The translations under genes and the position numbers were made by a program. The notes beneath the pieces were generated by a model, which had not been told where the DNA came from, did no database searches, and was given only the letters and a program-made list of their open reading frames with translations. From Campylobacterales bacterium (GTDB taxonomy: Bacteria; Campylobacterota; Campylobacteria; Campylobacterales; QNZT01), in NCBI GenBank assembly GCA_016744895.1, contig JADGDK010000016.1:1-36396 (forward strand): 36,396 bases of DNA, in the 5' to 3' direction. Below, in pieces: positions 7,104 to 29,910 of this stretch; the first letter of the stretch is position 1, and every line of letters starts with the position of its first letter.

Positions 7104-7508
7104 CTAACAAAGCTCTTTTTTAACAATTGGCAATAACTCTTTTTCAATCAAATTAAGGGTTTTTTCATACTCAACTTCAGCTTTTCCACTTGGATCATCA
7201 AAACCTACGTGAATTGTTTTTACAGCTTTTGGAAATATGGGACAAGTCTCTTTTGCATGGTCACACACGGTTATAATTAAATCAAAAGCAGTATCTAAAA
7301 CTGTTTCAATAACCTTAGAATGATATGATTGATTCCAGTAACCTTTTTCTTTTAGTAAAGCCTCAGCGTATGAATTTACAGTACCACTTGCTTTGACGCC
7401 TGAACTTTGAGCAAATAGACACGTGCTAAGTTTTGCATTTATAAGTGCTTCTCCCATAATTGAGCGACAACTATTTCCTGTACATAAGATTAATACATTT
7501 TTTCTCAT
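7104..7508 (-). CDS. arsC: arsenate reductase, LMW-PTP family (thioredoxin-coupled)
   Basis: CTGNSCRS P-loop (CX5R) at the N-terminus, 134 aa, adjacent to arsR and arsP. Confidence 0.85.
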   Translation of the reverse strand: MRKNVLILCTGNSCRSIMGEALINAKLSTCLFAQSSGVKASGTVNSYAEALLKEKGYWNQSYHSKVIETVLDTAFDLIITVCDHAKETCPIFPKAVKTIHVGFDDPSGKAEVEYEKTLNLIEKELLPIVKKELC

Positions 7509-7828
7509 ACTTTACATGCTCCAATATCAGATACTTTTTTTAACTTTGGAAGCTCTATCTCAAGATATTTAATCTCTTGTATCGCTTCACTTCTAAACTT
7601 ATCTAATGGACTTCTTACAGAGTAATAAGCCCATGTCCCTTTCCTATCTACTCTAATAAACCCTGCTTCTTTTAAAATCTTAAGGTGACGTGAAAGTCGA
7701 GATTGAATCATATCAAGCGAATTTTGTAAATCACACACACAACAAGCGCCATGTTCATCCAAAAATCGTAATATCAATACTCTTGTTTCATCATTGAGAG
7801 CAGCAATACTTTTTAAAAAAACTTCCAT
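7505..7828 (-). CDS. arsR: ArsR/SmtB-family metalloregulator
   Basis: wHTH with CCVCDL metal-binding motif followed by the recognition-helix region LSRHLKILKEAG. Confidence 0.85.
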   Translation of the reverse strand: MEVFLKSIAALNDETRVLILRFLDEHGACCVCDLQNSLDMIQSRLSRHLKILKEAGFIRVDRKGTWAYYSVRSPLDKFRSEAIQEIKYLEIELPKLKKVSDIGACKV

Positions 7829-8038: not shown

Positions 8039-9118
8039 TTACTGAAATGATCCCTGTTCAAGATCTTCATTTATCAAAAGAGTTAACCAAAGTGCCACTT
8101 TTTTAAAGCTTTTGTTTTTATTTCCATCTTCATTTAAAAGTCGTCTTTTATGGTCTGTTTCAAAACCTAAATGATAAATACTGTCTGCAATGTTATTGAT
8201 AAGATTTTTATTGTACAACTTTGTTTTTGCACCATCATTTTGAACAAGGTGAAATCCTGTCTCTTCACCTTGTTCATCATCACCATGAAGTTCTGCCCAT
8301 TTTTCTAGATAATTGGCTACTATATATTGATTAAGCTCTTTTACATCTTCTTTGTTTATTTCACCATCAACTGCGATACCTGTATTTTTAATCGCTTCTA
8401 TGATGATATGATTCATTGCGTCAGCAGCTATAGATGCTTCGCGCATGTCTCCTATAGAAATACGTTTTTGTAACCCTATATCTGCATAAATATATTCAAT
8501 AATCTGATCAAGCCCTGTACCTGTTGTACCTGCTACCTCTTCTATATCAGGATTTTGGAATTTTCCTGCTTCCAAATCTTGAGATAAAAGATTATTCAAC
8601 CAAATACCAACTTTTTTAAAACTTCTGTTTTTGTTTCCATCTTCATTTAAGAGGCGGTTTTTCTTATGTGTTTCAAAACCTAGATGATAGATACTATCTG
8701 CCACATTATTGATCGCATTTTTCCCATAAAGCTTTGTTCTTGCACCATCATTTTGTACAAGATGAAATCCTGTCTCTACCCCATCTTCATCATCACCGTG
8801 AAGTCTCTGCCAAGATTGAGCATAATTGGCAAAAATATAGTCATTAAGTTCTCGAGTATCTGCTGTAGATATAAGGCCGTCATTTGCAGTTCCTGTACTT
8901 ACAATAGCTTCGAGAATAATTTCATTCATCCTATCTGCTGCTTGAGCTGCTTCAGATATCTCTACCGCAGGTACACGCTTTTGGAGTCGTTTATCTGTTT
9001 TGATGATCTCTACAATCTTATCTAAACCAGTCGATGTAGTTCCCTCAGCTTGTAAATTAACACTTGAGAAGATCGCTATTGCTGTAACAGCACTTATAAA
9101 TTTATTTTGAAGTTTCAT
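8039..9118 (-). CDS. secreted protein composed of two tandem ~165-aa repeats, function unknown
   Basis: N-terminal signal peptide (MKLQNKFISAVTAIAIFSSVNLQAEG); the two halves are clearly homologous (e.g. ETGFHLVQNDGA.TKLY.KN.INN.ADSIYHLGFET...RLLNEDGNKN.SFKKV). Confidence 0.7.
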   Translation of the reverse strand: MKLQNKFISAVTAIAIFSSVNLQAEGTTSTGLDKIVEIIKTDKRLQKRVPAVEISEAAQAADRMNEIILEAIVSTGTANDGLISTADTRELNDYIFANYAQSWQRLHGDDEDGVETGFHLVQNDGARTKLYGKNAINNVADSIYHLGFETHKKNRLLNEDGNKNRSFKKVGIWLNNLLSQDLEAGKFQNPDIEEVAGTTGTGLDQIIEYIYADIGLQKRISIGDMREASIAADAMNHIIIEAIKNTGIAVDGEINKEDVKELNQYIVANYLEKWAELHGDDEQGEETGFHLVQNDGAKTKLYNKNLINNIADSIYHLGFETDHKRRLLNEDGNKNKSFKKVALWLTLLINEDLEQGSFQ

Positions 9119-9196: not shown

Positions 9197-9280
9197 TTTG
9201 GTAACCTGGCAATCTTTATTTCAAGACCCATAGCTTTCCGTCCTTGCTTCACAACAAGTTTGGCACAACAAAATAATTGA
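9197..9280 (+). repeat. copy A of a ~85-nt intergenic direct repeat (candidate sRNA or regulatory element)
   Basis: About 85% identical to the element at 9373-9460; an indel breaks any shared reading frame, so it is not protein-coding. Confidence 0.55.
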
Positions 9281-9372
9281 ATTAAATAACCAATAGAGAG
9301 ATAAACATACTTGTGAAAAAAGAAGAAAAGCAAAATATACAAGAAAATATAGGGTATATCATCTATGAACAT

Positions 9373-9460
9373 TTTGGCAACCTGGCGATCTTACGCTTAA
9401 AGACCCATGGCTTTCCGTCCTTGTTTCACAACAAGTTTGGCTCAATAAAGTTATTAAAAA
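9373..9460 (+). repeat. copy B of a ~85-nt intergenic direct repeat (candidate sRNA or regulatory element)
   Basis: Same orientation as copy A; shares the core GGCAACCTGG..GACCCATGGCTTTCCGTCCTTGTTTCACAACAAGTTTGGC. Confidence 0.55.
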
Positions 9461-15303: not shown

Positions 15304-16638
15304 TTAATACCGACTAGTATTGTCTTTGACATTGATAAGTACCTCTATGTGTTCGACCACTTCTACTAACTCTTTTTGAAGAGACATGACTTCAAAGATA
15401 TCTTTATAGGCAAATGGTGACTCATCGATAGTATTTTTATCTATGGTGCCTACTTTGCCATGCATTGAGGTTTTAAATGCTTCGAGAGTGATCTCTTTTT
15501 TTGCTTTTGATCGACTCATCACCCGTCCAGCACCATGTGAAGAGGAGTTGAGGGATGTTTTACATCCTTTTCCTCTTACGATAAAAGAGCCATCTCTCAT
15601 GTTCGCTGGAATCACACCCATCATGTCCTCCTCAGCATGGGTGGCACCTTTTCTATGTATCCACTCTGCTCTTGTCTCATCAAACTCTGCATGATTGTGA
15701 TTTTTGTTGATAAACCTGCTCTCATCATCAAATACTTTTTTATCTCGTATGTCTATGGATTCATTTAAAATATCAACAATTACTTCGATCATCTTTTTAC
15801 GATTTTCACGTGCAAAGAAAAGTGCAAAGTTTTGATCAGTGATATAGTCGCGTCCAAGCGCACTCTCTACATCTAAACCCCAAATACCCTCTAAGCTATC
15901 AAGGTTGACCTTTTTGTTGAGTTCAAGCTGTTTTTTATGCCTGAATTTTTCAAAAGCCTTGACATATGTCTTTGGATTATCAATTTTGAGTTTTTGGTTT
16001 CTTTGTGCAAACTCCTCTAGATGTTTGTCGATGTTGTTAAGTTTTGGATTTTTCTCTAAGTAGGCTTGGTACATATAGTGCGAAGCGATCTTATGTCCAA
16101 AACCACGACTCCCTGAGTGTATCACAATCCATACCCTATCACTACTGTCATACCCAAGCTCGATAAAATGATTTCCACCACCAAGAGTTCCTAACTGCAT
16201 CAATCCTACAGCGTTTAAAACTGTTTTTGTAAACGCTGTAAGTGGAAGATCAAGCTTTAACGACTGGTGGTTTTTGTGCTTTTTAAAGCCAAGCGGTATC
16301 GTGCTACTGATCTTTTGGTGAATAGACTCAGCTTTGGCTTTGACCTCTTCTTTGGTAAATGCTGTTTGATACGCACACATCCCACACCCGATATCAAATC
16401 CCACAAACTGTGGTACGATGACTCCTTTTGTAGCACATACTCCACCGATAGGCATACTATAGCCTGCATGTGCATCGGGCATCAATGCCCCATAAGTCAC
16501 ATAAGGTTTGCTAAGTACCGCTTCAAACTGATCTTGTGTCGTATCATCTAAAAGATCAGCATAGATCTTATAGGGTGTGTTTGTCTTATCAAATCTCTCA
16601 TGTTCTATCTCTTTAAATCCTAATGTCTTTAAATCCAT
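15304..16638 (-). CDS. rtcB: RtcB-family RNA ligase (long paralogue)
   Basis: RtcB metal/GMP-binding motifs: DIGCGM, GGGNHFIE, HSGSRGFG, SSSHGAGR; 444 aa. Confidence 0.85.
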   Translation of the reverse strand: MDLKTLGFKEIEHERFDKTNTPYKIYADLLDDTTQDQFEAVLSKPYVTYGALMPDAHAGYSMPIGGVCATKGVIVPQFVGFDIGCGMCAYQTAFTKEEVKAKAESIHQKISSTIPLGFKKHKNHQSLKLDLPLTAFTKTVLNAVGLMQLGTLGGGNHFIELGYDSSDRVWIVIHSGSRGFGHKIASHYMYQAYLEKNPKLNNIDKHLEEFAQRNQKLKIDNPKTYVKAFEKFRHKKQLELNKKVNLDSLEGIWGLDVESALGRDYITDQNFALFFARENRKKMIEVIVDILNESIDIRDKKVFDDESRFINKNHNHAEFDETRAEWIHRKGATHAEEDMMGVIPANMRDGSFIVRGKGCKTSLNSSSHGAGRVMSRSKAKKEITLEAFKTSMHGKVGTIDKNTIDESPFAYKDIFEVMSLQKELVEVVEHIEVLINVKDNTSRY

Positions 16639-16703
16639 TCTCTACTCCTTTATATTTTCTTGGTGTCAGTATAAAATAGAATATGGACATATCTTGTCCA
16701 TTT

Positions 16704-17306
16704 TTATTTATTTTTTAGCACTTTAAACTTTTCACCATAAAAGGTTTTAATAGGATCTCCTCGTTTGATCATTTTTACACTGTGCCATCGCTTTTGGATC
16801 TGTGCTTCGATTATCTCTATCTGTTGTAACTTATGCTTTTCCTCTAAGCGTCTACGTGCAATCTGTCTGTTTTGGTGTTGTGACCGTTGATCAAAACTAA
16901 CAGCACTGATACCTAGTGGTGGGTAGAGTGCACGTATCCCACTGTTGGTAGTGTTGACATGTTGTCCTCCTTTTTTGGGACTTTTCATGCTATGGTATAT
17001 GATGCGTGTATCATCAAAGTCAATAGGTTCAAACCCCTCATAACATATGAGTTCAAAGTACCAGTTTTTACGTTTATGTAAGGGACGAAATGGACTTTGA
17101 CTTTGCCAAATCAGCGTACCTTGGAGGTTTTGTAAGGCTTTGTCATGACTGTCTAAAAGTATAGAGTTATAACAGTTTGGTTGTATACCCTTTTCGATCT
17201 TGATTACACAAAAACCATATCTTTTCTCTATCCATTGGTAAAAATACCATATCCCTCTACTTACTTCATCAACTACATTTGCACTACTAATATAAATAAG
17301 CATCAA
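16704..17306 (-). CDS. prfH: peptide chain release factor H (PrfH), GGQ-domain protein
   Basis: GGQHVNTTNSGIR GGQ motif in a ~200-aa protein immediately downstream of, and abutting, an rtcB gene. Confidence 0.8.
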   Translation of the reverse strand: MMLIYISSANVVDEVSRGIWYFYQWIEKRYGFCVIKIEKGIQPNCYNSILLDSHDKALQNLQGTLIWQSQSPFRPLHKRKNWYFELICYEGFEPIDFDDTRIIYHSMKSPKKGGQHVNTTNSGIRALYPPLGISAVSFDQRSQHQNRQIARRRLEEKHKLQQIEIIEAQIQKRWHSVKMIKRGDPIKTFYGEKFKVLKNK

Positions 17307-18347
17307 TTACTCCTTGTAGGTGAGGATCGGTCGAAAAGTTGCTACCACCTCTACTAACTTTGCTTCAATGAGATCACTGATGACAATATCAATATCTTTA
17401 TAGGCTTGTGGGGCTTCTTGGTAGAGAAGACTACTATCATGACAGATGACACGTGCACCGATGGCTGTGCGTAAAAGCTGTTGTTTGTTGACAAGTTTTT
17501 TAAGCTTTGCTTCTACACTGTTTCGCTCCCACTTCCGTCCAGCACCATGTGCTAGTGAGTAGTTTGCTTGTGCAGTGTCAGCCAAAGGTTTGACAAGATA
17601 GCTGAGTGTTCCACGACTACCGGCGATCACTACTAATCCTTTATCTGTGGGCGTGGCTCCTTTTCTATGTAGCCAGAGATTATCTATTTGTGTAATGCTG
17701 TTGTGTCCAGTGTTGCTGACACATGTTAACGAACCCACTAAATTCAATGCTTTGAGTACTCTTTTGACAATCTCTTCCCTACTCTTTTTAGCAAAGTTTT
17801 GTGCTTTATCATGATCGCTCATGTAGGCTTTGGCTAAAGGACTTTTTGCATCAATCCCTTCATTACTTTTATAAGAGGTTGCAACTTTATCAAACACCAT
17901 CTGCCCGAAACTTCTTGAACCACTGTGTACTAAGATATAGAGCATATCTTTATCCATATCACCACTGTTTAACTGATGCAATTCAACAAAGTGGTTGCCC
18001 CTGCCTATCGTGCCTAAGTTATGTTCACGTAGAGGTGTATCTATTTCTACGTCACTGAGACTGTTTAGTTTTAAAAGCTTCTTTTCAAATCGATCTATTT
18101 TGATCTTTTTGGATTTTACAGGGAGTGCAAAAAGACTCATCCCACATCCTATATCACCTCCAATGAGATGAGGATAGATCACGTCTTTGCTCATCACTGC
18201 CATCCCGTTTGGTACAAAACCGACACTCAAGTCTGGTAGTCCTACAACGTTTTGTACACCTCTATAGGTGGTGATCTTTTTTAATGTCTCAACACTTCGC
18301 TGGTCAATCCAGTTTCTCTTTGAAGCGATGATCTTTAGATTGTTCAT
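17307..18347 (-). CDS. rtcB2: RtcB2-type RNA ligase (short paralogue, prfH-linked)
   Basis: DIGCGM, GNHFVE, HSGSRSFG, AHGAGR motifs; 346 aa; stop abuts the prfH start. Confidence 0.85.
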   Translation of the reverse strand: MNNLKIIASKRNWIDQRSVETLKKITTYRGVQNVVGLPDLSVGFVPNGMAVMSKDVIYPHLIGGDIGCGMSLFALPVKSKKIKIDRFEKKLLKLNSLSDVEIDTPLREHNLGTIGRGNHFVELHQLNSGDMDKDMLYILVHSGSRSFGQMVFDKVATSYKSNEGIDAKSPLAKAYMSDHDKAQNFAKKSREEIVKRVLKALNLVGSLTCVSNTGHNSITQIDNLWLHRKGATPTDKGLVVIAGSRGTLSYLVKPLADTAQANYSLAHGAGRKWERNSVEAKLKKLVNKQQLLRTAIGARVICHDSSLLYQEAPQAYKDIDIVISDLIEAKLVEVVATFRPILTYKE

Positions 18348-18500
18348 AAATTCTCCATAATCTATTTTTGTTTTGTTTGTAACCGCTGTTTAATGTTCTA
18401 TTTTGTATCTCTAAAGTCATAAATTCTCCTTTATTATATTTGAAAATATGGTACAATAATTTAGTGACGTATTTTGTCCAGTAAAAAATAGAAGGTGATT

Positions 18501-19415
18501 ATGAGCCAAAAATCAAGCCTATATCGAACCATCGAAATCCTTAAAATGCTCAATAGCGGTAAAAAGTTATGTGTCTCAAATCTTGCGATGGTTTATGAAG
18601 TGAGTAATAGAACGATTAGACGCGATTTTGAGCTTATTCGCGAGAGTTTTGGTGACTTTATGCGTAAAGATGGTGAGTGTTATAAAGCTTATAAAAAGGT
18701 GCTTTTGGAAGATCTTTTGATGGGGTCGGACTTGATGACACTAGCCAATATCATCAATCTTTTTGGACAGGCTTCGATGGAAGAGAGTATCGATGAGCAA
18801 ACCAAAGATCTTGTGAAAAAATCTCTACGTGTCTATGACTTTAAGACCCGACCTTTTGAACATGTAGAAAATAGAGAGATTGTCAAAAAGCTTGAATATG
18901 CGATCAAGTTTAACAAAGAGATTCGCATTGAATATCAGATATCACGTGGAAGTACAAAGAGGTGGTTTCAGCCTTATAAGATACTCTTTATCAATGAAAA
19001 CTTTTATCTTGCGGGTGAAAATATCTCAAAAAAGAATTTTGAGTTTTTGCGAACTGCACTCATCTTAGATATCGAAGAGAGTAAGAAAACATTTTATCAA
19101 AAGACTGATATGATCGACTTTATCCAAACAATCCAAACCCCTTGGGCCTCTTTTGGTAAAGAGGAGATCACTGTAAGACTTAGGATGGATAGTAAGATAC
19201 GAAAGTACTTTTTTATGAAAAAATACCTGCCAAGTCAAAAGGTGATTCAAACTTTTGAAGATGGAGATATCGAGGTAGAGTATGTGGTGAGTAACCTCAG
19301 AGAGGTCGAAGAATTGGTGATCAAATGGCTTCCACATATCAAGATCATTGCACCTAAAAATCTAAAGCGAATGATTAAGAAGGTGATAGGAAAGAAGTTG
19401 GCGGGGTTGAGGTAA
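18501..19415 (+). CDS. HTH + WYL-domain transcriptional regulator
   Basis: N-terminal HTH (LYRTIEILKMLN..VSNLAMVYEVSNRTIRRDFELI); WYL-like domain IRIEYQISRGSTKRWFQPYKILFINENFYLAG; start set at the ATG after a GAAGGTG RBS. Confidence 0.65.
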   Translation: MSQKSSLYRTIEILKMLNSGKKLCVSNLAMVYEVSNRTIRRDFELIRESFGDFMRKDGECYKAYKKVLLEDLLMGSDLMTLANIINLFGQASMEESIDEQTKDLVKKSLRVYDFKTRPFEHVENREIVKKLEYAIKFNKEIRIEYQISRGSTKRWFQPYKILFINENFYLAGENISKKNFEFLRTALILDIEESKKTFYQKTDMIDFIQTIQTPWASFGKEEITVRLRMDSKIRKYFFMKKYLPSQKVIQTFEDGDIEVEYVVSNLREVEELVIKWLPHIKIIAPKNLKRMIKKVIGKKLAGLR

Positions 19416-19420
19416 ATACT

Positions 19421-19756
19421 ATGCATACAAAACAAAATCTACTCTTTATCTGTAGTCGAAACAAATGGCGCAGTCCCACAGCAGAGACCATCTATAAAAA
19501 AGAGCAGAGCTTTAACGTCCGATCTGCTGGTACAAGTCCCAAAGCAAGAAGAACTGTCAATCATAAAGATATCCACTGGGCAGATATCATCTTTGTGATG
19601 GAAAAAAAACATAAAAGCAGACTCAAAACACAATTTTTAGAGATGTTAAACGGTAAAAAGATATATGTTTTAGATATTCCTGATGATTATCTCTATATGG
19701 ATGAATCGTTAATCTATGAGTTAGAGAGCAAGGTGGATATGCATCTTGATGTCTAA
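19421..19756 (+). CDS. small LMW-PTP-like phosphatase (CX5R P-loop)
   Basis: LFICSRNKWRSPTAE matches the LMW protein-tyrosine-phosphatase/ArsC P-loop C-X5-R-S; 111 aa; DIPDDY near the C-terminus as a possible general-acid region. Confidence 0.55.
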   Translation: MHTKQNLLFICSRNKWRSPTAETIYKKEQSFNVRSAGTSPKARRTVNHKDIHWADIIFVMEKKHKSRLKTQFLEMLNGKKIYVLDIPDDYLYMDESLIYELESKVDMHLDV

Positions 19757-20393
19757 AGAAGCATTACAACAACGTTGGTATCAACTTTTTGCCACACATG
19801 ATCATGTGAAGCTAGAGAATACATTTGATCAGTTATGTACACAATACTCCCAAACGCATCGATACTACCATACACTACAACATGTCACGTCTCTGCTCTC
19901 ACATCTCCAAACAGTCGAACACCTGATCAACGATCACTTTTGTGTTGAGACGGCAATCTGGTTTCATGACATGGTCTATGATCCAAAACGAGATGACAAT
20001 GAAGCACGGAGTGCACAAAGTGCTGTTAGATTTCTAAAGGCTATCGATATTCCCAAAGAGATGATAGAAAAAGTAAAACACCTTATCCTTTTAACCAAGC
20101 ATCCATCCACTCCACAAACAAAAGATGAAAAGTATCTCATCGATATGGATCTCTCTATCTTAGGTGTAGATACCTCTTATTATGCTCAGTATGAAAAGTG
20201 GATCAGAAAAGAGTATCAACATGTGAGTGATATAGACTATAAAAAAGGACGAAAAAAAGTGTTAGACTCTTTTCTAAGTATGGCTCAAATCTACCAAACA
20301 GAGTACTTTTATGAAAGGTTAGAGGGGAAAGCTAGGGAGAATGTTTCTAACGCGATGATTTCTTTATGCTTAGATATTTCAAGTGTTAGTTAG
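19749..20393 (+). CDS. HD-superfamily metal-dependent phosphohydrolase-like protein
   Basis: YYHTLQHV ... WFHDMVYDP pattern (H..H ... HD) typical of HD-domain proteins; start overlaps the stop of the preceding phosphatase gene. Confidence 0.5.
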   Translation: MSKEALQQRWYQLFATHDHVKLENTFDQLCTQYSQTHRYYHTLQHVTSLLSHLQTVEHLINDHFCVETAIWFHDMVYDPKRDDNEARSAQSAVRFLKAIDIPKEMIEKVKHLILLTKHPSTPQTKDEKYLIDMDLSILGVDTSYYAQYEKWIRKEYQHVSDIDYKKGRKKVLDSFLSMAQIYQTEYFYERLEGKARENVSNAMISLCLDISSVS

Positions 20394-20813: not shown

Positions 20814-22085
20814 ATGACTAAAAAAATCTATCCAACTTCATCTAAAGAATGGATGAAGTATTTAACTGTTGATAAATACTATACTCCAAGAGAAATTGAA
20901 TATAGAAAAAAACTCATTATAGAAAGTGGTTGTGATTATGATGAAGTTTATAAAAAAATACTCAAATATAGAAATAATAAAAAAGAATTAATCAACTTAG
21001 AAGGCGAAAGCTTTACATTTGTTGAAACTCATCTTATGAAAGAAAATGTTGATAGAATCAAGAATTTTTGGAGAAGTAGTTCTTACTCTTTTAAAGAAAG
21101 TTATAAAAAAGAATTGATTTTTGACACCTTGCTTTCTGAAGCATTTCATTCATCATCAATTGAGGGTGCTCATAGTACAAAAAAAAGAACAGAAGAGATC
21201 ATTAAAAAACAATTAACACCTGAAGACAAATCAGAAAGAATGATTATTAATAATTATAGAGCTTTACAATATATTTTTGACCATCAAGAACAAAAACTAG
21301 ATGATGAATTTGTTTTATCTCTACATAAAATGATATCAGAAGATACTCTTGATGAAAAAGAAGATGAAGGAGTTTATAGGAATGATGGTGTTGAAATAAC
21401 TACAGCTACACAAAAAGTTGTTTTTCGACCAACTTCTGATATTAATAAGATGAAAAATATGCTTGATAAGCTTTATTCATTTACTAATTCAGATAATGAT
21501 GATTGTGAAATAGAATATATTGAATCCATATATAAAGTTATCGCATTTCATTTTTTATATGGATATATACATCCTCATTTTGATGGGAATGGAAGAACAT
21601 TAAGAGTTTTATTTACTCACTTACTTGGTCAAAATGGTTTCGATATGTTTTATTATATATCTTTATCTGAAATCATTCACTTAAGTGAGAAGAGAAAAAA
21701 AGAATATGAAAAAGCATTCATCGATGTAGAAGAGAATGAACTAGATTTGACTTATTTTATCTACTATATTCAAGATATTATGATTGATGCATTACAGGTA
21801 CTAGATGATAGAGTATTTCTCTATTTTAGAGAAAGTATTGTATTTGATAAAGTTGAGGAACAGGCTGTTAAATTAACTAAGCGTCAAGAAAATATTCTGA
21901 AATTAATTGCAAGAAATAAAAGAGCATTTGCTATGACTTCTAAAGAAATTTCTGGAAGATTTAAACTATCATCTCAAACAATTTTAAAAGATATAAGATT
22001 TTTAATTGACTTTAAATTATTAAGAAAAAAACAAACAGGTTTAAAAATTTATTACGAATTAGATATTAATGTTACAAAAAGCTAA
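20814..22085 (+). CDS. fic: Fic/Doc family protein, class II (internal inhibitory motif), C-terminal wHTH
   Basis: Fic motif HPHFDGNGRTLR; upstream inhibitory-helix motif SSSIEG ([ST]xxxE[GN]) in the same polypeptide; C-terminal HTH-like region. Confidence 0.85.
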   Translation: MTKKIYPTSSKEWMKYLTVDKYYTPREIEYRKKLIIESGCDYDEVYKKILKYRNNKKELINLEGESFTFVETHLMKENVDRIKNFWRSSSYSFKESYKKELIFDTLLSEAFHSSSIEGAHSTKKRTEEIIKKQLTPEDKSERMIINNYRALQYIFDHQEQKLDDEFVLSLHKMISEDTLDEKEDEGVYRNDGVEITTATQKVVFRPTSDINKMKNMLDKLYSFTNSDNDDCEIEYIESIYKVIAFHFLYGYIHPHFDGNGRTLRVLFTHLLGQNGFDMFYYISLSEIIHLSEKRKKEYEKAFIDVEENELDLTYFIYYIQDIMIDALQVLDDRVFLYFRESIVFDKVEEQAVKLTKRQENILKLIARNKRAFAMTSKEISGRFKLSSQTILKDIRFLIDFKLLRKKQTGLKIYYELDINVTKS

Positions 22086-22301
22086 AAATATAACAAAACT
22101 ACAATAAATTGAAAATAGAAATTCAACCTTATTCCAAAGATGACGAGGTTGATATTCGAAAAATCAAAATTTAACAAAAAACATATTCCACAACGGACAA
22201 AATACGTCCACTAACTACCCTATACTACCACTGTGCAAAGGCAGTTTTGATACTGCCTGCTTGCATACTTACGCTGTGAGTGATGTATGAGACTTGCACA
22301 A

Positions 22302-22357
22302 GTCAACTGTGAATTGACCCAAATTTTAAATTCGTGGGTTCGAATCCCACCATACTG
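22302..22357 (+). pseudogene. tRNA-His-like remnant (anticodon arm with GTG plus canonical T-arm), not an intact tRNA
   Basis: GTCAA-CTGTGAA-TTGAC anticodon stem-loop (anticodon GTG) and TCGTGGGTTCGAATCCCAC T-arm. A 15-nt AT-rich insertion replaces the variable loop and no complementary 5' acceptor or D-arm is present. Confidence 0.4.
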
Positions 22358-22578
22358 AAAGGTATGTAGCTAAGCGGTAAAGCATAACAAAAGCCCAAGA
22401 GAGCTTATCTCTTTCAAAACAAACGCACCAAAAAACCAGAGCGATGATCTTGTATATCGTGTTAGAAAAAGTATAAAAAGTTGCAACTTCGAGTGTTTAG
22501 AAGTGTGTAAACTGGAGATACTTTGGAAACACATTATCCATCATGCTCCGTTTACGGTGCATCTATAAAGGAGTAGAA

Positions 22579-23685
22579 ATGTTGATAGGAACAGTCAAAG
22601 AAAGTGAAAAAGCGTTACTTTATAAAAATGAAAAGTTAGTTAAAGTATTAGAGAGTGGTAGGTATGTGTTTCCAAACTTTACAGGTGCCTATAGATATGA
22701 AGTGTTTAGTGTAGAGCATTTTGGGATTGATACAAAAAAGAGTGAGTTACTTTATAAAAAGTACCCTGAGTTGATCAAAAAACATTTTGAGGTAGTCGCA
22801 CTTGGTGAAGAGGAGCGTGCTTTTATCTGGATCGATGGAAAGTTTGCTGAGCTTTTAAAAGCTGGAGCGACAAAGCTCTATTTTAAAGAGTATGATGTGA
22901 AAATGGAAAAAGTCAATGTCAAAGAAGAGATGCGTGTTTCCACTAAGTATGTCAAACTTTTGGAGGGGAGTTGGGAGCATATTTTGAGAGTCAATATCAG
23001 TGCACATGAGTGGGCATATCTCTATATTGACAATGTCTTGGATAAAAGGCTTGAGGTAGGTATGCATCTTTTTTATACAGACTTTTTTGATATCAAGTCC
23101 TCTAAGCTTGACAAGCGTGTCAAAGAGATGGAGATCACAGGTCAAGAGTTACTCAGTGCCGATAAAGTCACCCTGAGATGTAATGTGACAATGCACTATA
23201 AGATCAGTGATGCGGTACGTTATATGGAGACTGCTTTTGCCCCACATGAATATCTTTACAAACACATGCAATTTGCAATCAGAGAGCATATCGGTACAAA
23301 AACGGTGGATGAAATATTAGAGCATAAAAACAGCTTGAGTGAGGAGATTTTGGAGCGATTTTTAGTACATTGTGAAAAGATCGGTGTAACAATAGAGTCG
23401 ATGCATATCAAAGATATTATCCTGCCTGGTGAGATGAGAGAGATCTTTAACCATGTCATCGAAGCGAGTAAACGTGCAGAGGCAAATCTCATCAAAAGAC
23501 GAGAGGAGACAGCCGCAACAAGATCATTGTTAAACACAGCCAAGTTGATGAAAGACAACCCTACTTTGGCAAGGCTCAAAGAGCTTGAAGCGTTGGAAAA
23601 GATCACCCAAAGCGTAGAGACGCTCAATGTCTATGGTGGACTTGATGGGGTGATGCATAATCTTGTAGATCTTCGTGAAAAATAA
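22579..23685 (+). CDS. SPFH/band-7 (stomatin/prohibitin-like) domain protein
   Basis: SPFH-type core and coiled-coil C-terminus (GEMREIFNHVIEASKRAEANLIKRREETAATRSLLNTAKL); start set at the ATG after an AAGGAG RBS. Confidence 0.7.
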   Translation: MLIGTVKESEKALLYKNEKLVKVLESGRYVFPNFTGAYRYEVFSVEHFGIDTKKSELLYKKYPELIKKHFEVVALGEEERAFIWIDGKFAELLKAGATKLYFKEYDVKMEKVNVKEEMRVSTKYVKLLEGSWEHILRVNISAHEWAYLYIDNVLDKRLEVGMHLFYTDFFDIKSSKLDKRVKEMEITGQELLSADKVTLRCNVTMHYKISDAVRYMETAFAPHEYLYKHMQFAIREHIGTKTVDEILEHKNSLSEEILERFLVHCEKIGVTIESMHIKDIILPGEMREIFNHVIEASKRAEANLIKRREETAATRSLLNTAKLMKDNPTLARLKELEALEKITQSVETLNVYGGLDGVMHNLVDLREK

Positions 23686-28205: not shown

Positions 28206-29264
28206 ATGACTAATCACTTTATTAAAAACTTGAATCTAACTAATTTTAAATGTTTTAAAAAGCTTGAAGTAGATGGCTTTCAAAGAGTAAATTTAATAAG
28301 TGGTAAAAATAATATTGGTAAAACTTCTTTAATGGAGGCAATTGAATTATCAGTTTCTTCTGAGACTTCTCATGATTTAGCTTACAAAATATATGAAATG
28401 ATGAGAAGAAGACAATCAATTATTAGATTAAATAGAGAAAAATATTTTGAGTTAGATTTTATATATGATGATAGCTCTAATGTCACAATCATTATGAATA
28501 ATAAAGAAGTTAGGATTGAATATTTAGAATATATTAAAAAGACACCAGAAGAAGAAAATCTATTTGAGGAAGAAGACTTAACTGTCTCTTATTATCAACC
28601 ATCACTAAAATTAAGTATAAATGATGATAGTAGAATTTTTACAATCGACAGGTTTATAAATAGACCCAGTATGATAAGACGAGAGCGATATAGTGAAAAT
28701 AAAGCAAAAGTAAATTTTATAACTTCTACAACAACAGATGAACGAGATATAGCAATTTTTTATGGTAAATTAATAGATTTAAATAAAGAGGAATTTTTAA
28801 ATAATTCTTTAAAAATATTTGATGAAAATATTCTTGCTTTAAAACAAAAAGCAACTGAAAGAGATATTGTTTTAAAAATCCAATTAAAGAATAGAGAATT
28901 ACCAGTCCTTCTATCTTCTTTAGGTGAAGGAATTAATAGATATATAGCAATAATATGTGCAATATGGGCAAGTCAAGATAGTTTTCTATTCATTGATGAA
29001 ATTGAAAATGGCATACATTACACAAATTACGAGAAACTATGGAAAATAATCTTTGAAACATCTAAAATGGCAAATTGCCAAATATTTATAACAACACATT
29101 CTAAAGAATGCATTGAATCTTTTAATCATGTAAATAAAAATAATGCAGGTACTTATTTTGAATTCTATAGAAATCAAAAAACAAATTTAATTACTGCAAA
29201 ACAAAGAGATACTAATCAATTGAATTATGCACTAACGCATAATGGAGAAATTAGAGGTGAGTAG
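28206..29264 (+). CDS. AAA_21/ABC-type ATPase of a two-gene OLD/AbiL/PARIS-like module
   Basis: N-terminal Walker A GKNNIGKTS within an SMC/OLD-like head (FIKNLNLTNFKCF); C-terminal Walker B LFIDEIENGIH and H-loop FITTHS; very AT-rich gene. Confidence 0.7.
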   Translation: MTNHFIKNLNLTNFKCFKKLEVDGFQRVNLISGKNNIGKTSLMEAIELSVSSETSHDLAYKIYEMMRRRQSIIRLNREKYFELDFIYDDSSNVTIIMNNKEVRIEYLEYIKKTPEEENLFEEEDLTVSYYQPSLKLSINDDSRIFTIDRFINRPSMIRRERYSENKAKVNFITSTTTDERDIAIFYGKLIDLNKEEFLNNSLKIFDENILALKQKATERDIVLKIQLKNRELPVLLSSLGEGINRYIAIICAIWASQDSFLFIDEIENGIHYTNYEKLWKIIFETSKMANCQIFITTHSKECIESFNHVNKNNAGTYFEFYRNQKTNLITAKQRDTNQLNYALTHNGEIRGE

Positions 29265-29910
29265 TTCAATAGTTGTTGAAAGTGAAAATGATAAATATTT
29301 TATAGAAGCACTTATCTGTAAATTAAACTTGGATATTAAAGTAGATAATCCAATTTGTTCCATAAATAATTATGAATGTTTGGGTGGCTATACAAATTTA
29401 ATCAATAAGCTTAAGGGAATACGATTTGATAAATTTACTAAACTTGGCATCATATTAGATGCTGATGATGTAGGAGTAGAAGAGAGAATTAAATTTATTA
29501 ATGATTCTTTAAAAACTATTTGTTCAGATGTAGAATTAACTAACATAAATGAATTAAAGAGAAGTGAAGAGCTAGATATTGACATAGCTTGTTATATTAT
29601 GAATATTGATGGTAAAGGTGAACTTGAAACTGTTTTAAAAACTATAAAATCAGAAGAGTCAATTTATGCAGATTGTTTATCTGAATGGCGTAATTGTTTA
29701 AAAAGTACAGGTTGCGAAATAAGTGATAAAGAATTTGACAAATTTTGGATTAACAACTATTTAAAATTTGATACTTGTAAAAGCAGTAAGCATAGAGGAA
29801 ATAAAAGTAAATATTGTTCTAATGAAATGGCTATAAAAAAAGATATATGGAACTTTGAACATTCATCTCTCATTGATTTAAAAGACTTTTTAACTTTATT
29901 TAAAATTTAA
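29242..29910 (+). CDS. RloB/AbiLii-like TOPRIM-fold protein (partner of the upstream ATPase)
   Basis: N-terminus IVVESENDKYFIEAL resembles the RloB/OLD TOPRIM glutamate motif (I.VEGE.TE..YF); downstream acidic DxD-like GIILDADDVG; overlaps the ATPase gene by 23 nt. Confidence 0.55.
   Translation: MEKLEVSSSIVVESENDKYFIEALICKLNLDIKVDNPICSINNYECLGGYTNLINKLKGIRFDKFTKLGIILDADDVGVEERIKFINDSLKTICSDVELTNINELKRSEELDIDIACYIMNIDGKGELETVLKTIKSEESIYADCLSEWRNCLKSTGCEISDKEFDKFWINNYLKFDTCKSSKHRGNKSKYCSNEMAIKKDIWNFEHSSLIDLKDFLTLFKI

Follow-up and report, generated by a model that had tools for sequence, protein, structure and literature searches.

The window analysed here, the whole 36,396-nucleotide (nt) contig JADGDK010000016.1 of a Campylobacterales bacterium (assembly GCA_016744895.1), carries on its minus strand an rtcB2-prfH cassette followed by a second, longer rtcB gene. 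We interpret these genes as part of a Campylobacterota regulon for repair of the translation apparatus, in which three units, each preceded by an operator-like site, stand under the control of a WYL-domain regulator and separate ligases serve ribosomal RNA (rRNA) and other RNAs; we consider this reading probable. Since the same palindromic site precedes both ligase units as well as the gene of a tRNA-like RNA, the arrangement points to one shared RNA-damage response, a single regulon repairing rRNA and probably also tRNA.

Related loci, cited below by their L numbers, were collected by a scan with a PrfH alignment taking one genome per species. It yielded 42 loci in all, with Campylobacterota contributing 22 and gammaproteobacteria 20, and these were typed by tblastn; 16 of the Campylobacterota loci contain enough sequence downstream of prfH to be informative about a second ligase. 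A further sample, centred on a unit of a non-coding RNA (ncRNA) and an SPFH protein, came from a metagenome scan with the SPFH protein and a second look at the loci collected earlier. Among the nearest relatives of the window, metagenome-assembled genomes are labelled Epsilonproteobacteria, Sulfurovaceae, Sulfurimonadaceae or Halarcobacter. E. coli RtcB1 from strain K-12 and the intact rtcB2-prfH locus of E. coli strain RM10466 served as references.

The two RtcB ligases and PrfH

The listing of open reading frames (ORFs) and the Pfam searches bear out the three same-strand genes described in an earlier sequence-only reading of this DNA, with coordinates, lengths, strand and motifs all correct. 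The first of them in the direction of transcription, rtcB2 (17307..18347, minus strand), encodes a protein of 346 amino acids (aa). It matches the Pfam RtcB family with 182 bits and TIGR03073 ('release_rtcB') with 343.4 bits, above the cut-off of 271.8, and narrowly misses the stricter model NF007153 (386 bits, cut-off 407). In phmmer comparisons it scores 240 bits with E. coli RtcB2 and 77 bits with E. coli RtcB1, corresponding to identities of 40% and 26%, and a neighbour-joining tree places it inside the RtcB2 clade together with the E. coli enzyme. By these sequence criteria the short ligase is classed as an RtcB2, as had been proposed.

The gene for the second ligase (15304..16638, minus strand) encodes 444 aa and behaves differently in the same comparisons. 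Its Pfam RtcB score is 280 bits, and phmmer gives 193 bits with E. coli RtcB1 versus 81 bits with E. coli RtcB2; identities are 36% to E. coli RtcB1, 26% to E. coli RtcB2 and 28% to the neighbouring RtcB2 of the window. In the tree the Campylobacterota clade of about 445 aa, to which it belongs, is sister to gammaproteobacterial and E. coli RtcB1, opposite two RtcB2 clades. The protein is accordingly assigned to the RtcB1 type and is not a longer copy of RtcB2; a duplication of RtcB2 is ruled out by the phmmer scores and the tree. The second, longer RtcB noted earlier is present, and the tree places the two ligases separately; the term paralogue, taken as a copy of RtcB2, does not fit. Compared with E. 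coli RtcB1 the enzyme contains an insertion of about 45 residues (approximately 195-258), which the AlphaFold2 model (predicted local distance difference test score, pLDDT, 92) renders as extra helices on a standard RtcB fold; a Foldseek search with this model matched the RtcB structure 4dwq with an E value of 4.5e-27. The family has at least 7991 matches, the best 120 of which share 62-72% identity, and its few named members are from Arcobacter or Sulfurovum. Among about 20 ORFs between 13489 and 31286 of the window, scanned with Pfam and NCBIfam, neither RtcA nor RtcR was found, and the promoter region of the gene has a WYL-type palindrome instead of a sigma-54 promoter. Because RtcA, RtcR and a sigma-54 promoter are missing there, we call the enzyme RtcB1-like and not a member of an Rtc operon.

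Both active sites are complete. The ten essential residues, D75, C78, N167, H168, H185, R189, H281, H337, R341 and R345 in E. coli RtcB1, correspond to D65, C68, N118, H119, H141, R145, H215, H267, R271 and R275 in the window RtcB2 and to D82, C85, N156, H157, H174, R178, H314, H368, R372 and R376 in the 444-aa enzyme, so that the motif sets held to be intact in both proteins are indeed so, ten of ten in each. They are also kept in every full-length RtcB of the related loci. Structures of the P. horikoshii enzyme assign these residues to two metal sites, to the guanylylated histidine and to an arginine holding the 5'-OH strand; the nucleophile of the window RtcB2 aligns with H294 of E. coli RtcB2. 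Inactivating substitutions were found in neither ligase at the ten positions, and the only change that stands out is one shared by the whole clade. Where RtcB1, gammaproteobacterial RtcB2 and archaeal RtcB read PD-x-H-x-G-x-G-x-P-I-G, the Campylobacterota RtcB2 proteins (24 of 24) read PDLSVG-VPNG at residues 37-46 or thereabouts, with the conserved histidine replaced by serine and a deletion of one residue. A literature search found no published role for this histidine.

Directly downstream of rtcB2 lies prfH (16704..17306, minus strand), encoding a short-form peptide chain release factor H. The rtcB2 stop codon occupies 17309-17307, and prfH probably starts at ATG 17303, 3 nt further on, with an AAGGAG 6 nt upstream of it within the 3' end of rtcB2. 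This start gives the 199-aa form present in databases, while the alternative TTG at 17306 gives 200 aa and abuts rtcB2 directly. Pfam recognises an RF-1 domain (55.6 bits, residues 95-183) with the GGQ motif at 113-115 (KKGGQHVN); RF domain 1 is absent. The best matches in the PDB are the two solved PrfH proteins, that of Capnocytophaga gingivalis (9mor, 9e-26) and that of E. coli (7sa4, 2e-20), while RF1 and RF2 structures are reached with about 1e-7 only, via the GGQ domain. According to the list of contact residues of Tian et al. 2022 (PMC9304027), the equivalents of E. coli PrfH R83, H86, R88 and R189, which form the pocket for the 3'-phosphate of A1493, are all kept, as are the helix-18 contacts K89 and N90 and, in addition, S53. 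From these comparisons the protein is identified as PrfH, in line with the earlier assignment; a truncated prfB is ruled out by the top-ranking PrfH structures, the kept pocket residues and the lack of RF domain 1. The window protein is of the short form and does not have the basic tail at the C-terminus that marks the PrfH-CT subfamily; only activity on damaged ribosomes is expected of it.

The substrates of both E. coli ligases have been determined. Toxins of the ColE3/CdiA type cut 16S rRNA between A1493 and G1494; with the A site empty, the 3'-phosphorylated A1493 is recognised by E. coli PrfH, which hydrolyses the peptidyl-tRNA, and once the 30S subunit is free RtcB2 rejoins its 16S rRNA (PMC9304027). 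E. coli RtcB2 cannot repair tRNAs cut by ColE5 or ColD, which are repaired by RtcB1, and RtcB1 in turn does not repair the cut 30S subunit, the substrates being mutually exclusive (PMC9304027). By analogy, PrfH of the window would enter the A site of ribosomes cut at A1493/G1494 and release the peptide, after which RtcB2 would re-ligate the 16S rRNA in the freed 30S subunit. The 444-aa ligase, apparently expressed from its own promoter, would reseal RNAs whose termini are a 2',3'-cyclic phosphate or a 3'-phosphate and a 5'-OH, its chief targets presumably being tRNAs cut in the anticodon loop, as for E. coli RtcB1. Of the two explanations that had been offered for the tandem, two RNA substrates is therefore the one we favour, on account of the RtcB2 and RtcB1 clade assignments, the intact active sites and the mutually exclusive substrates in E. 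coli (PMC9304027).

The operator-like site, the WYL regulator and the ncRNA-SPFH unit

The stop codon of prfH and the start of the 444-aa rtcB are separated by a 65-nt spacer. It contains a perfect palindrome, TGGACA-AGATA-TGTCCA (16684..16700; TGGACA-N5-TGTCCA), which begins 3 nt after the prfH stop and is followed 11 nt later by a -10-like TATACT (about 16673-16668). A second operator-like site, TGGACAAAATACGTCAC on the minus strand, lies between rtcB2 and the divergent WYL gene (18464..18480) with a -10-like TACCAT at about 18453-18448, and a third copy, CGGACAAAATACGTCCA (22194..22210), has a TATACT 11 nt downstream (about 22220-22225). Alignments of the upstream regions across loci gave the consensus TTYGGACA-N5-TGTCCRAA. 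The site is found upstream of rtcB2 in 20 of 22 Campylobacterota loci (L005 is without the motif, and in L020 a stretch of N breaks it). Ahead of the 445-aa rtcB it is present in 12 of 13 loci, among them L001 with an unlinked copy of this gene. Together with TATAAT it precedes the orthologous RtcB in L001, L002, L008, L011, L012, L015, L023-25, L068 and L069. It also precedes the ncRNA-SPFH unit, and in L016 it stands directly before the start of the WYL gene itself. A strict form of the motif gave 31 hits in 336 kb of Campylobacterota loci, all of them in promoter-like positions, and none in 343 kb of gammaproteobacterial loci; with a looser pattern there were 90 hits, compared with 6-24 in shuffled sequence.

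The site always lies a short way upstream of a TATAAT-like box, at constant spacing, and thus occupies the place of the -35 element; an operator in place of the -35 element recalls PafBC. Half-sites are kept even where no RNA hairpin can form (CGGTCA...TGTCCA in L008, CGGACA...CGACCA in L015), which speaks for a DNA site bound by a protein and against a terminator. The second RtcB has its own promoter-like region, and a shared regulon fits better than the single operon that had been assumed. That assumption is doubtful, as the spacer holds both a -10-like element and an operator, and the same pair stands before rtcB2 and before stand-alone orthologues of the long RtcB. The operator was also seen before other genes, namely a 1,034-aa SF1 helicase (AAA_11/AAA_12) in L020 (3007-6182) and an AbiEii-type nucleotidyltransferase in L025 (3076-3882), a sign that the WYL regulon may carry variable, conflict-related cargo.

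The WYL gene (18495..19415, plus strand; probable true start ATG 18501) runs divergently from rtcB2. Its product matches the PADLOC WYL models and shows the Pfam domains HTH_DeoR (residues 11-50), WYL (129-194) and WCX (224-296); no PDB entry matches it in sequence. Orthologues with 50-92% identity flank rtcB2-prfH, the ncRNA-SPFH unit or both in most Campylobacterota loci, with more than 25 linked cases. The WYL protein is the probable binder of the palindromic operator, and its WYL domain may sense a damage signal.

A leader upstream ORF (uORF) of 38 codons (18304..18420, minus strand), which has its own Shine-Dalgarno sequence, overlaps the start codon of rtcB2 in a different frame. A Shine-Dalgarno sequence and an ATG are found 58-76 nt upstream of rtcB2 in 21 of 21 loci, and the reading frame always runs past the rtcB2 ATG. 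The peptide, rich in K, N, Q and R, is poorly conserved in sequence; it is annotated as a 46-aa gene in L002 and as a 36-aa gene in L068. The uORF may serve for translational coupling or as a sensor of the ribosome state, and would form the first unit together with rtcB2 and prfH.

The third unit would consist of a structured, Y-RNA-like (YrlA-like) ncRNA (22228..22465, ends approximate, plus strand) and the gene of a 380-aa SPFH/Band-7 protein (22543..23685, plus strand; Pfam Band_7, 3e-22). The ncRNA has a 5' hairpin and, at 22326-22389, a permuted tRNA-like module composed of T-arm, closing stem and D-arm. In a local search of 481 nt it matched the Rfam family YrlA (RF02553) with 31.8 bits (E value 4e-5), not reaching the gathering score of 69. 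The Rfam E-value scan did not recover YrlA in L004, L020 and L025, where the search space was larger, which accounts for this result. Homologous modules, 22 in all, occur in 12 loci; for 21 of them RNAalifold predicted 10 pairs, of which 8 show compensatory changes and almost none is broken. ARAGORN called an 85-nt tRNA-His at 22274-22358. This candidate was rejected, as it has no Rfam tRNA match and is part of the tRNA-like ncRNA.

In more than 12 loci the order of the unit is the same: the operator comes first, then the -10 box, a conserved 5' hairpin and between one and three tRNA-like modules, and last the SPFH gene. With few exceptions such a unit has the WYL gene, rtcB2 or prfH as its neighbour. 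Operator and -10 box were located upstream of it in L004, L011, L016, L050-52, L055, L057, L059 and L060. SPFH orthologues with 49-88% identity follow the ncRNA beside a WYL regulator, RtcB2 or PrfH in at least 15 loci, and more distant homologues (33-34% identity) head SPFH-RtcB1-RtcA operons in gammaproteobacteria. The scan of window ORFs turned up no TROVE/Rsr (Ro60) protein, although Rsr may be encoded in another part of the genome; what regularly adjoins the ncRNA is the SPFH protein, for which PADLOC has no family. In gammaproteobacterial PrfH loci, two abutting tRNA-like genes were seen at the front of an SPFH-RtcB1-RtcA(-RlaP) operon that lies within several kb of rtcB2-prfH (L026 at 18366-18512, L034 at 16555-16691, and L035 and L038); in L026 they are preceded by a sigma-54-like TGGCAC-N5-TTGA element.

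Distribution of the tandem arrangement and competing explanations

A gene for the 445-aa type of RtcB follows prfH on the same strand in 7 of the 16 informative Campylobacterota loci: directly, as in the window, in L008; with an uncharacterised 249-aa gene (X249) in between in L011, L012 and L015; and with 1.4-1.9 kb of unrelated ORFs in between in L023, L024 and L025. In the other 9 it is missing downstream of prfH. Among these is L004, the closest relative of the window locus (PrfH 79% identical), in which prfH abuts the same FMN-binding gene that is found beyond the 444-aa rtcB in the window. Viewed from the side of the 445-aa ligase, three of five loci show the cassette context (L002, L068, L069) and two a stand-alone gene (L001, L070). 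Outside this lineage an adjacent same-strand second RtcB was found in none of the 20 gammaproteobacterial PrfH loci, nor at the E. coli locus examined; in five of the gammaproteobacterial loci an RtcB1-RtcA operon lies 3.5-6 kb away on the opposite strand. The tandem is unusual overall, given the published statement that the overwhelming majority of RtcB2s stand in a two-component operon, yet it is a recurrent, lineage-specific architecture and no one-off. The remark that a second RtcB in tandem is unusual therefore holds with respect to E. coli and the gammaproteobacterial loci, but not within Campylobacterota, where three loci outside the PrfH-anchored count add to the seven.

X249, which lies between prfH and the 445-aa rtcB in many relatives, encodes about 249 aa with a basic C-terminus; it is found in L002 (7184-7933), L011, L012, L014, L015, L054 and L068, is absent from the window and matches no Pfam or PADLOC family.

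Three other explanations of the arrangement were weighed. The short distance of 65 nt and the common strand of the three genes would suit a single polycistronic operon, in which the second RtcB is redundant or a back-up for the same 16S lesion or for another rRNA lesion and the palindrome is a mere attenuator or terminator. A T-rich tract follows the palindrome in the window and was picked up by the terminator scan, and read-through from the rtcB2 promoter is possible. We consider this explanation unlikely nonetheless, as the 444-aa enzyme is of the RtcB1 lineage and E. coli RtcB1 does not repair the cut in h44. As a terminator, moreover, the motif would hardly be expected to keep its half-sites where hairpin potential is lost (L008, L015), to stand always at a fixed distance from a TATAAT-like box, or to occur before the unlinked orthologue in L001 and before non-coding and other genes. 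It is quite improbable that the 445-aa RtcB is an ordinary housekeeping enzyme that came to lie beside a mobile rtcB2-prfH cassette. The large size of its family, with members standing alone in unrelated contexts (L001, L070), and the lack of the gene at this site in L004 would agree with such an incidental adjacency, but at least 10 distinct loci show it, with three types of spacer (direct, X249, unrelated ORFs), and even the L001 copy, though unlinked, shares its operator with rtcB2.

A division of labour between healing and sealing was the other explanation offered before; one RtcB would process the ends, as a cyclic phosphodiesterase or by capping, and the other would seal them. In RtcB enzymes the 2',3'-cyclic phosphodiesterase step is indeed separable, RtcB3 of M. 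xanthus reportedly caps 5'-phosphate ends, and two ligase-like genes share the locus. Both window proteins, however, keep the metal-binding residues, the nucleophilic histidine and the arginines for the 5'-OH strand, that is, all that complete ligation takes, and RtcB needs no healing partner. E. coli RtcB2 alone seals cut 16S rRNA according to PMC9304027 and PMC13166195. About half of the related loci, including the closest relative, are without the second gene, and the two genes downstream of the WYL gene described below are better candidates for end healing. The division of labour is thus unsupported, and we regard it as highly improbable.

Several observations weigh against the regulon with two ligases of different substrate, which we prefer. 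The 444-aa enzyme is only 36% identical to E. coli RtcB1 and carries the insertion, and its substrate could therefore differ. All 24 Campylobacterota RtcB2 sequences have lost the PD.H.G histidine to serine. PrfH scores 126.9 bits with TIGR03072, short of the curated cut-off of 166.65, and differs from E. coli PrfH at H85, R181 and H184; TIGR03072 is still its best family by far, with RF1 and RF2 models at 51 bits or less, and on account of the sub-threshold score we take the window protein, like the whole Campylobacterota clade, for a divergent member. The functions of the proteins of this clade are read from their sequences, and binding of the operator by the WYL protein is deduced from the co-localisation of gene and motif. 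The stand-alone orthologue in L070 has no operator, and, by the terminator scan, the palindrome ahead of the 444-aa rtcB in the window could also fold into a weak terminator-like hairpin. The absence of a second RtcB from this site in L004, the closest relative, indicates that the second ligase is dispensable.

Known systems, accessory genes and surroundings

To our knowledge, no system other than RtcB2-PrfH is known to undo the damage that ribotoxins do to the decoding centre of the ribosome; studies of it have been confined to E. coli and Capnocytophaga, where it was treated as an isolated two-gene operon. In the window and about 25 related loci the pair stands within a larger set comprising the RtcB1-type ligase, the ncRNA-SPFH unit, a tiny cysteine phosphatase and the WYL protein with its operator. 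The rtcB2-prfH core and its biochemistry are already known, and the locus is an extension of them without a new principle.

The core resembles the E. coli rtcB2-prfH operon (PMC9304027, PMC9223846) in the order of rtcB2 and prfH, their tight coupling and the RtcB2 clade (40% identity), as well as in the short-form PrfH with GGQ motif and kept A1493-3'-phosphate pocket, and the expected mechanism is the same. Of the features seen in the window, the second RtcB, the WYL regulator, the leader uORF and the phosphatase are missing from the E. coli locus (dinB-yafP-rtcB2-prfH-pepD). On the protein level the window differs from E. coli by a PrfH below the TIGR03072 cut-off with the three changed residues named above and by an RtcB2 that is 33 aa shorter and has lost the PD.H.G histidine. 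The best-scoring solved homologue of the window PrfH, that of C. gingivalis, belongs to the PrfH-CT subfamily, whose basic C-terminal tail lets the C. gingivalis protein rescue non-stop ribosomes (PMC12829566), while the window PrfH (199-200 aa) is without a tail.

Further likenesses exist to rtcBA systems controlled by RtcR and sigma-54 and to the Salmonella rsr-yrlBA-rtcBA operon (PMC7790460, PMC4201824), where an RtcB1-type ligase belongs to a damage-responsive regulon with a ligand-sensing regulator and, in Salmonella, a tRNA-mimicking, Y-RNA-like ncRNA is part of the same regulon. The SPFH gene has its counterparts in rtc loci too, both in the gammaproteobacterial L026 and L034-38 and in the P. 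aeruginosa locus with PaFlo8 (PMC13086221). In contrast to these systems the window has no RtcR, RtcA, Ro60/Rsr or sigma-54-type promoter; control is apparently exerted by the HTH-WYL-WCX protein and a palindromic operator at -35. The ncRNA also differs from YrlA, being below the Rfam threshold and having one to three tRNA-like modules in relatives. The regulator itself resembles WYL regulators of the PafBC, DriD and BrxR/CapW types in its HTH-WYL-WCX order, the divergent gene and the palindromic site. It has no sequence match to solved WYL regulators, and its presumptive regulon comprises RNA repair and not DNA-damage or phage-defence genes.

In the accessible literature we found no description of a recurrent coupling to an RtcB1-type ligase, of a WYL operator for three units, of the ncRNA-SPFH unit or of a link to the phosphatase, although listings in supplementary tables are possible. 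A 2019 review names TPR, Pol-beta nucleotidyltransferase, zinc-finger and charged-helix proteins as accessories, but no second RtcB, WYL, SPFH or phosphatase, and searches for RtcB with WYL or for WYL with RNA repair returned only papers citing a CARF/WYL review. The locus suggests several ideas that can be tested: that rRNA and tRNA repair are coupled in one cellular response, that WYL proteins govern RNA-damage regulons in the place held elsewhere by the CARF domain of RtcR, and that the SPFH/tRNA-like RNA pair and the minimal phosphatase, both of which also occur beside gammaproteobacterial RtcB genes, are general accessory factors of RtcB. A farther-reaching proposal is that in Campylobacterota the WYL regulator replaced RtcR and sigma-54, with one operator coordinating rRNA rescue and repair by uORF-RtcB2-PrfH, a dedicated RtcB1-type ligase for tRNA and other RNAs, a tRNA-mimic ncRNA of several modules that serves with its SPFH protein as decoy, sensor or scaffold, and a very highly conserved enzyme of minimal low-molecular-weight protein tyrosine phosphatase (LMW-PTP) fold that heals nucleic-acid ends instead of dephosphorylating proteins; we put this forward tentatively and with some doubt. 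If this proposal is true, RNA repair would gain a new class of damage-sensing regulator, along with two accessory components, as yet uncharacterised, for which a link to RtcB loci exists in other phyla too.

The minimal phosphatase gene (19421..19756, plus strand) begins 5 nt after the WYL gene, and the gene for a 215-aa HD-like putative phosphohydrolase (19746..20393, plus strand) overlaps it by 11 nt; both are probably co-transcribed with the WYL gene. The LMW-PTP-like protein matches Pfam LMWPc; at 111 aa it falls short of the characterised members by about 40 residues. The P-loop has the form C-X5-R-S (CSRNKWRS), and C11, R17, S18 and D88 are invariant in 35 sequences. The AlphaFold2 model (pLDDT 92) retrieved exclusively LMW-PTPs as top Foldseek matches, with TM scores up to 0.79, consistent with this fold. 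The family comprises at least 2,518 proteins, and across phyla identity to the window protein is 61-93%. Homologues stand directly after prfH in seven gammaproteobacterial loci (L026, L027, L033-35, L037, L038), beside Rnl-type RNA ligases and an HD/AAA_33 kinase in L064, and in a neighbourhood of RtcB, RF-1, DEAD, Thg1 and kinase genes in L067; L065 and L066 show no obvious repair genes nearby. PADLOC has no family for the protein. We regard it as a candidate RNA-end phosphatase, and it may trim RNA ends together with the HD-like protein.

The HD-like gene is counted only tentatively as part of the system. Its product has a single family match, a weak one to an NCBIfam phosphohydrolase model, and none in Pfam or PADLOC. 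A homologue of 35% identity is located 1.7 kb upstream of rtcB2 in Oleispira (L045), and in L004 the gene (7270-7530) has lost residues 49-165 or so by an internal deletion, indicating that it is decaying or dispensable there.

Beyond these genes the wider window looks like a conflict or defence island. A SoFic-like Fic/HTH protein is encoded at 20814-22085 (plus strand), and an AbiL-like pair, consisting of an AbiLi AAA ATPase and a DUF3226 protein, lies at 28206-29910 (plus strand) in a patch of about 24% GC. On the minus strand, two tandem c-di-GMP-I riboswitch aptamers (9197-9274 and 9372-9450; Rfam scores 58 and 62.7 bits, above gathering) are located upstream of the ORF at 8039-9118.

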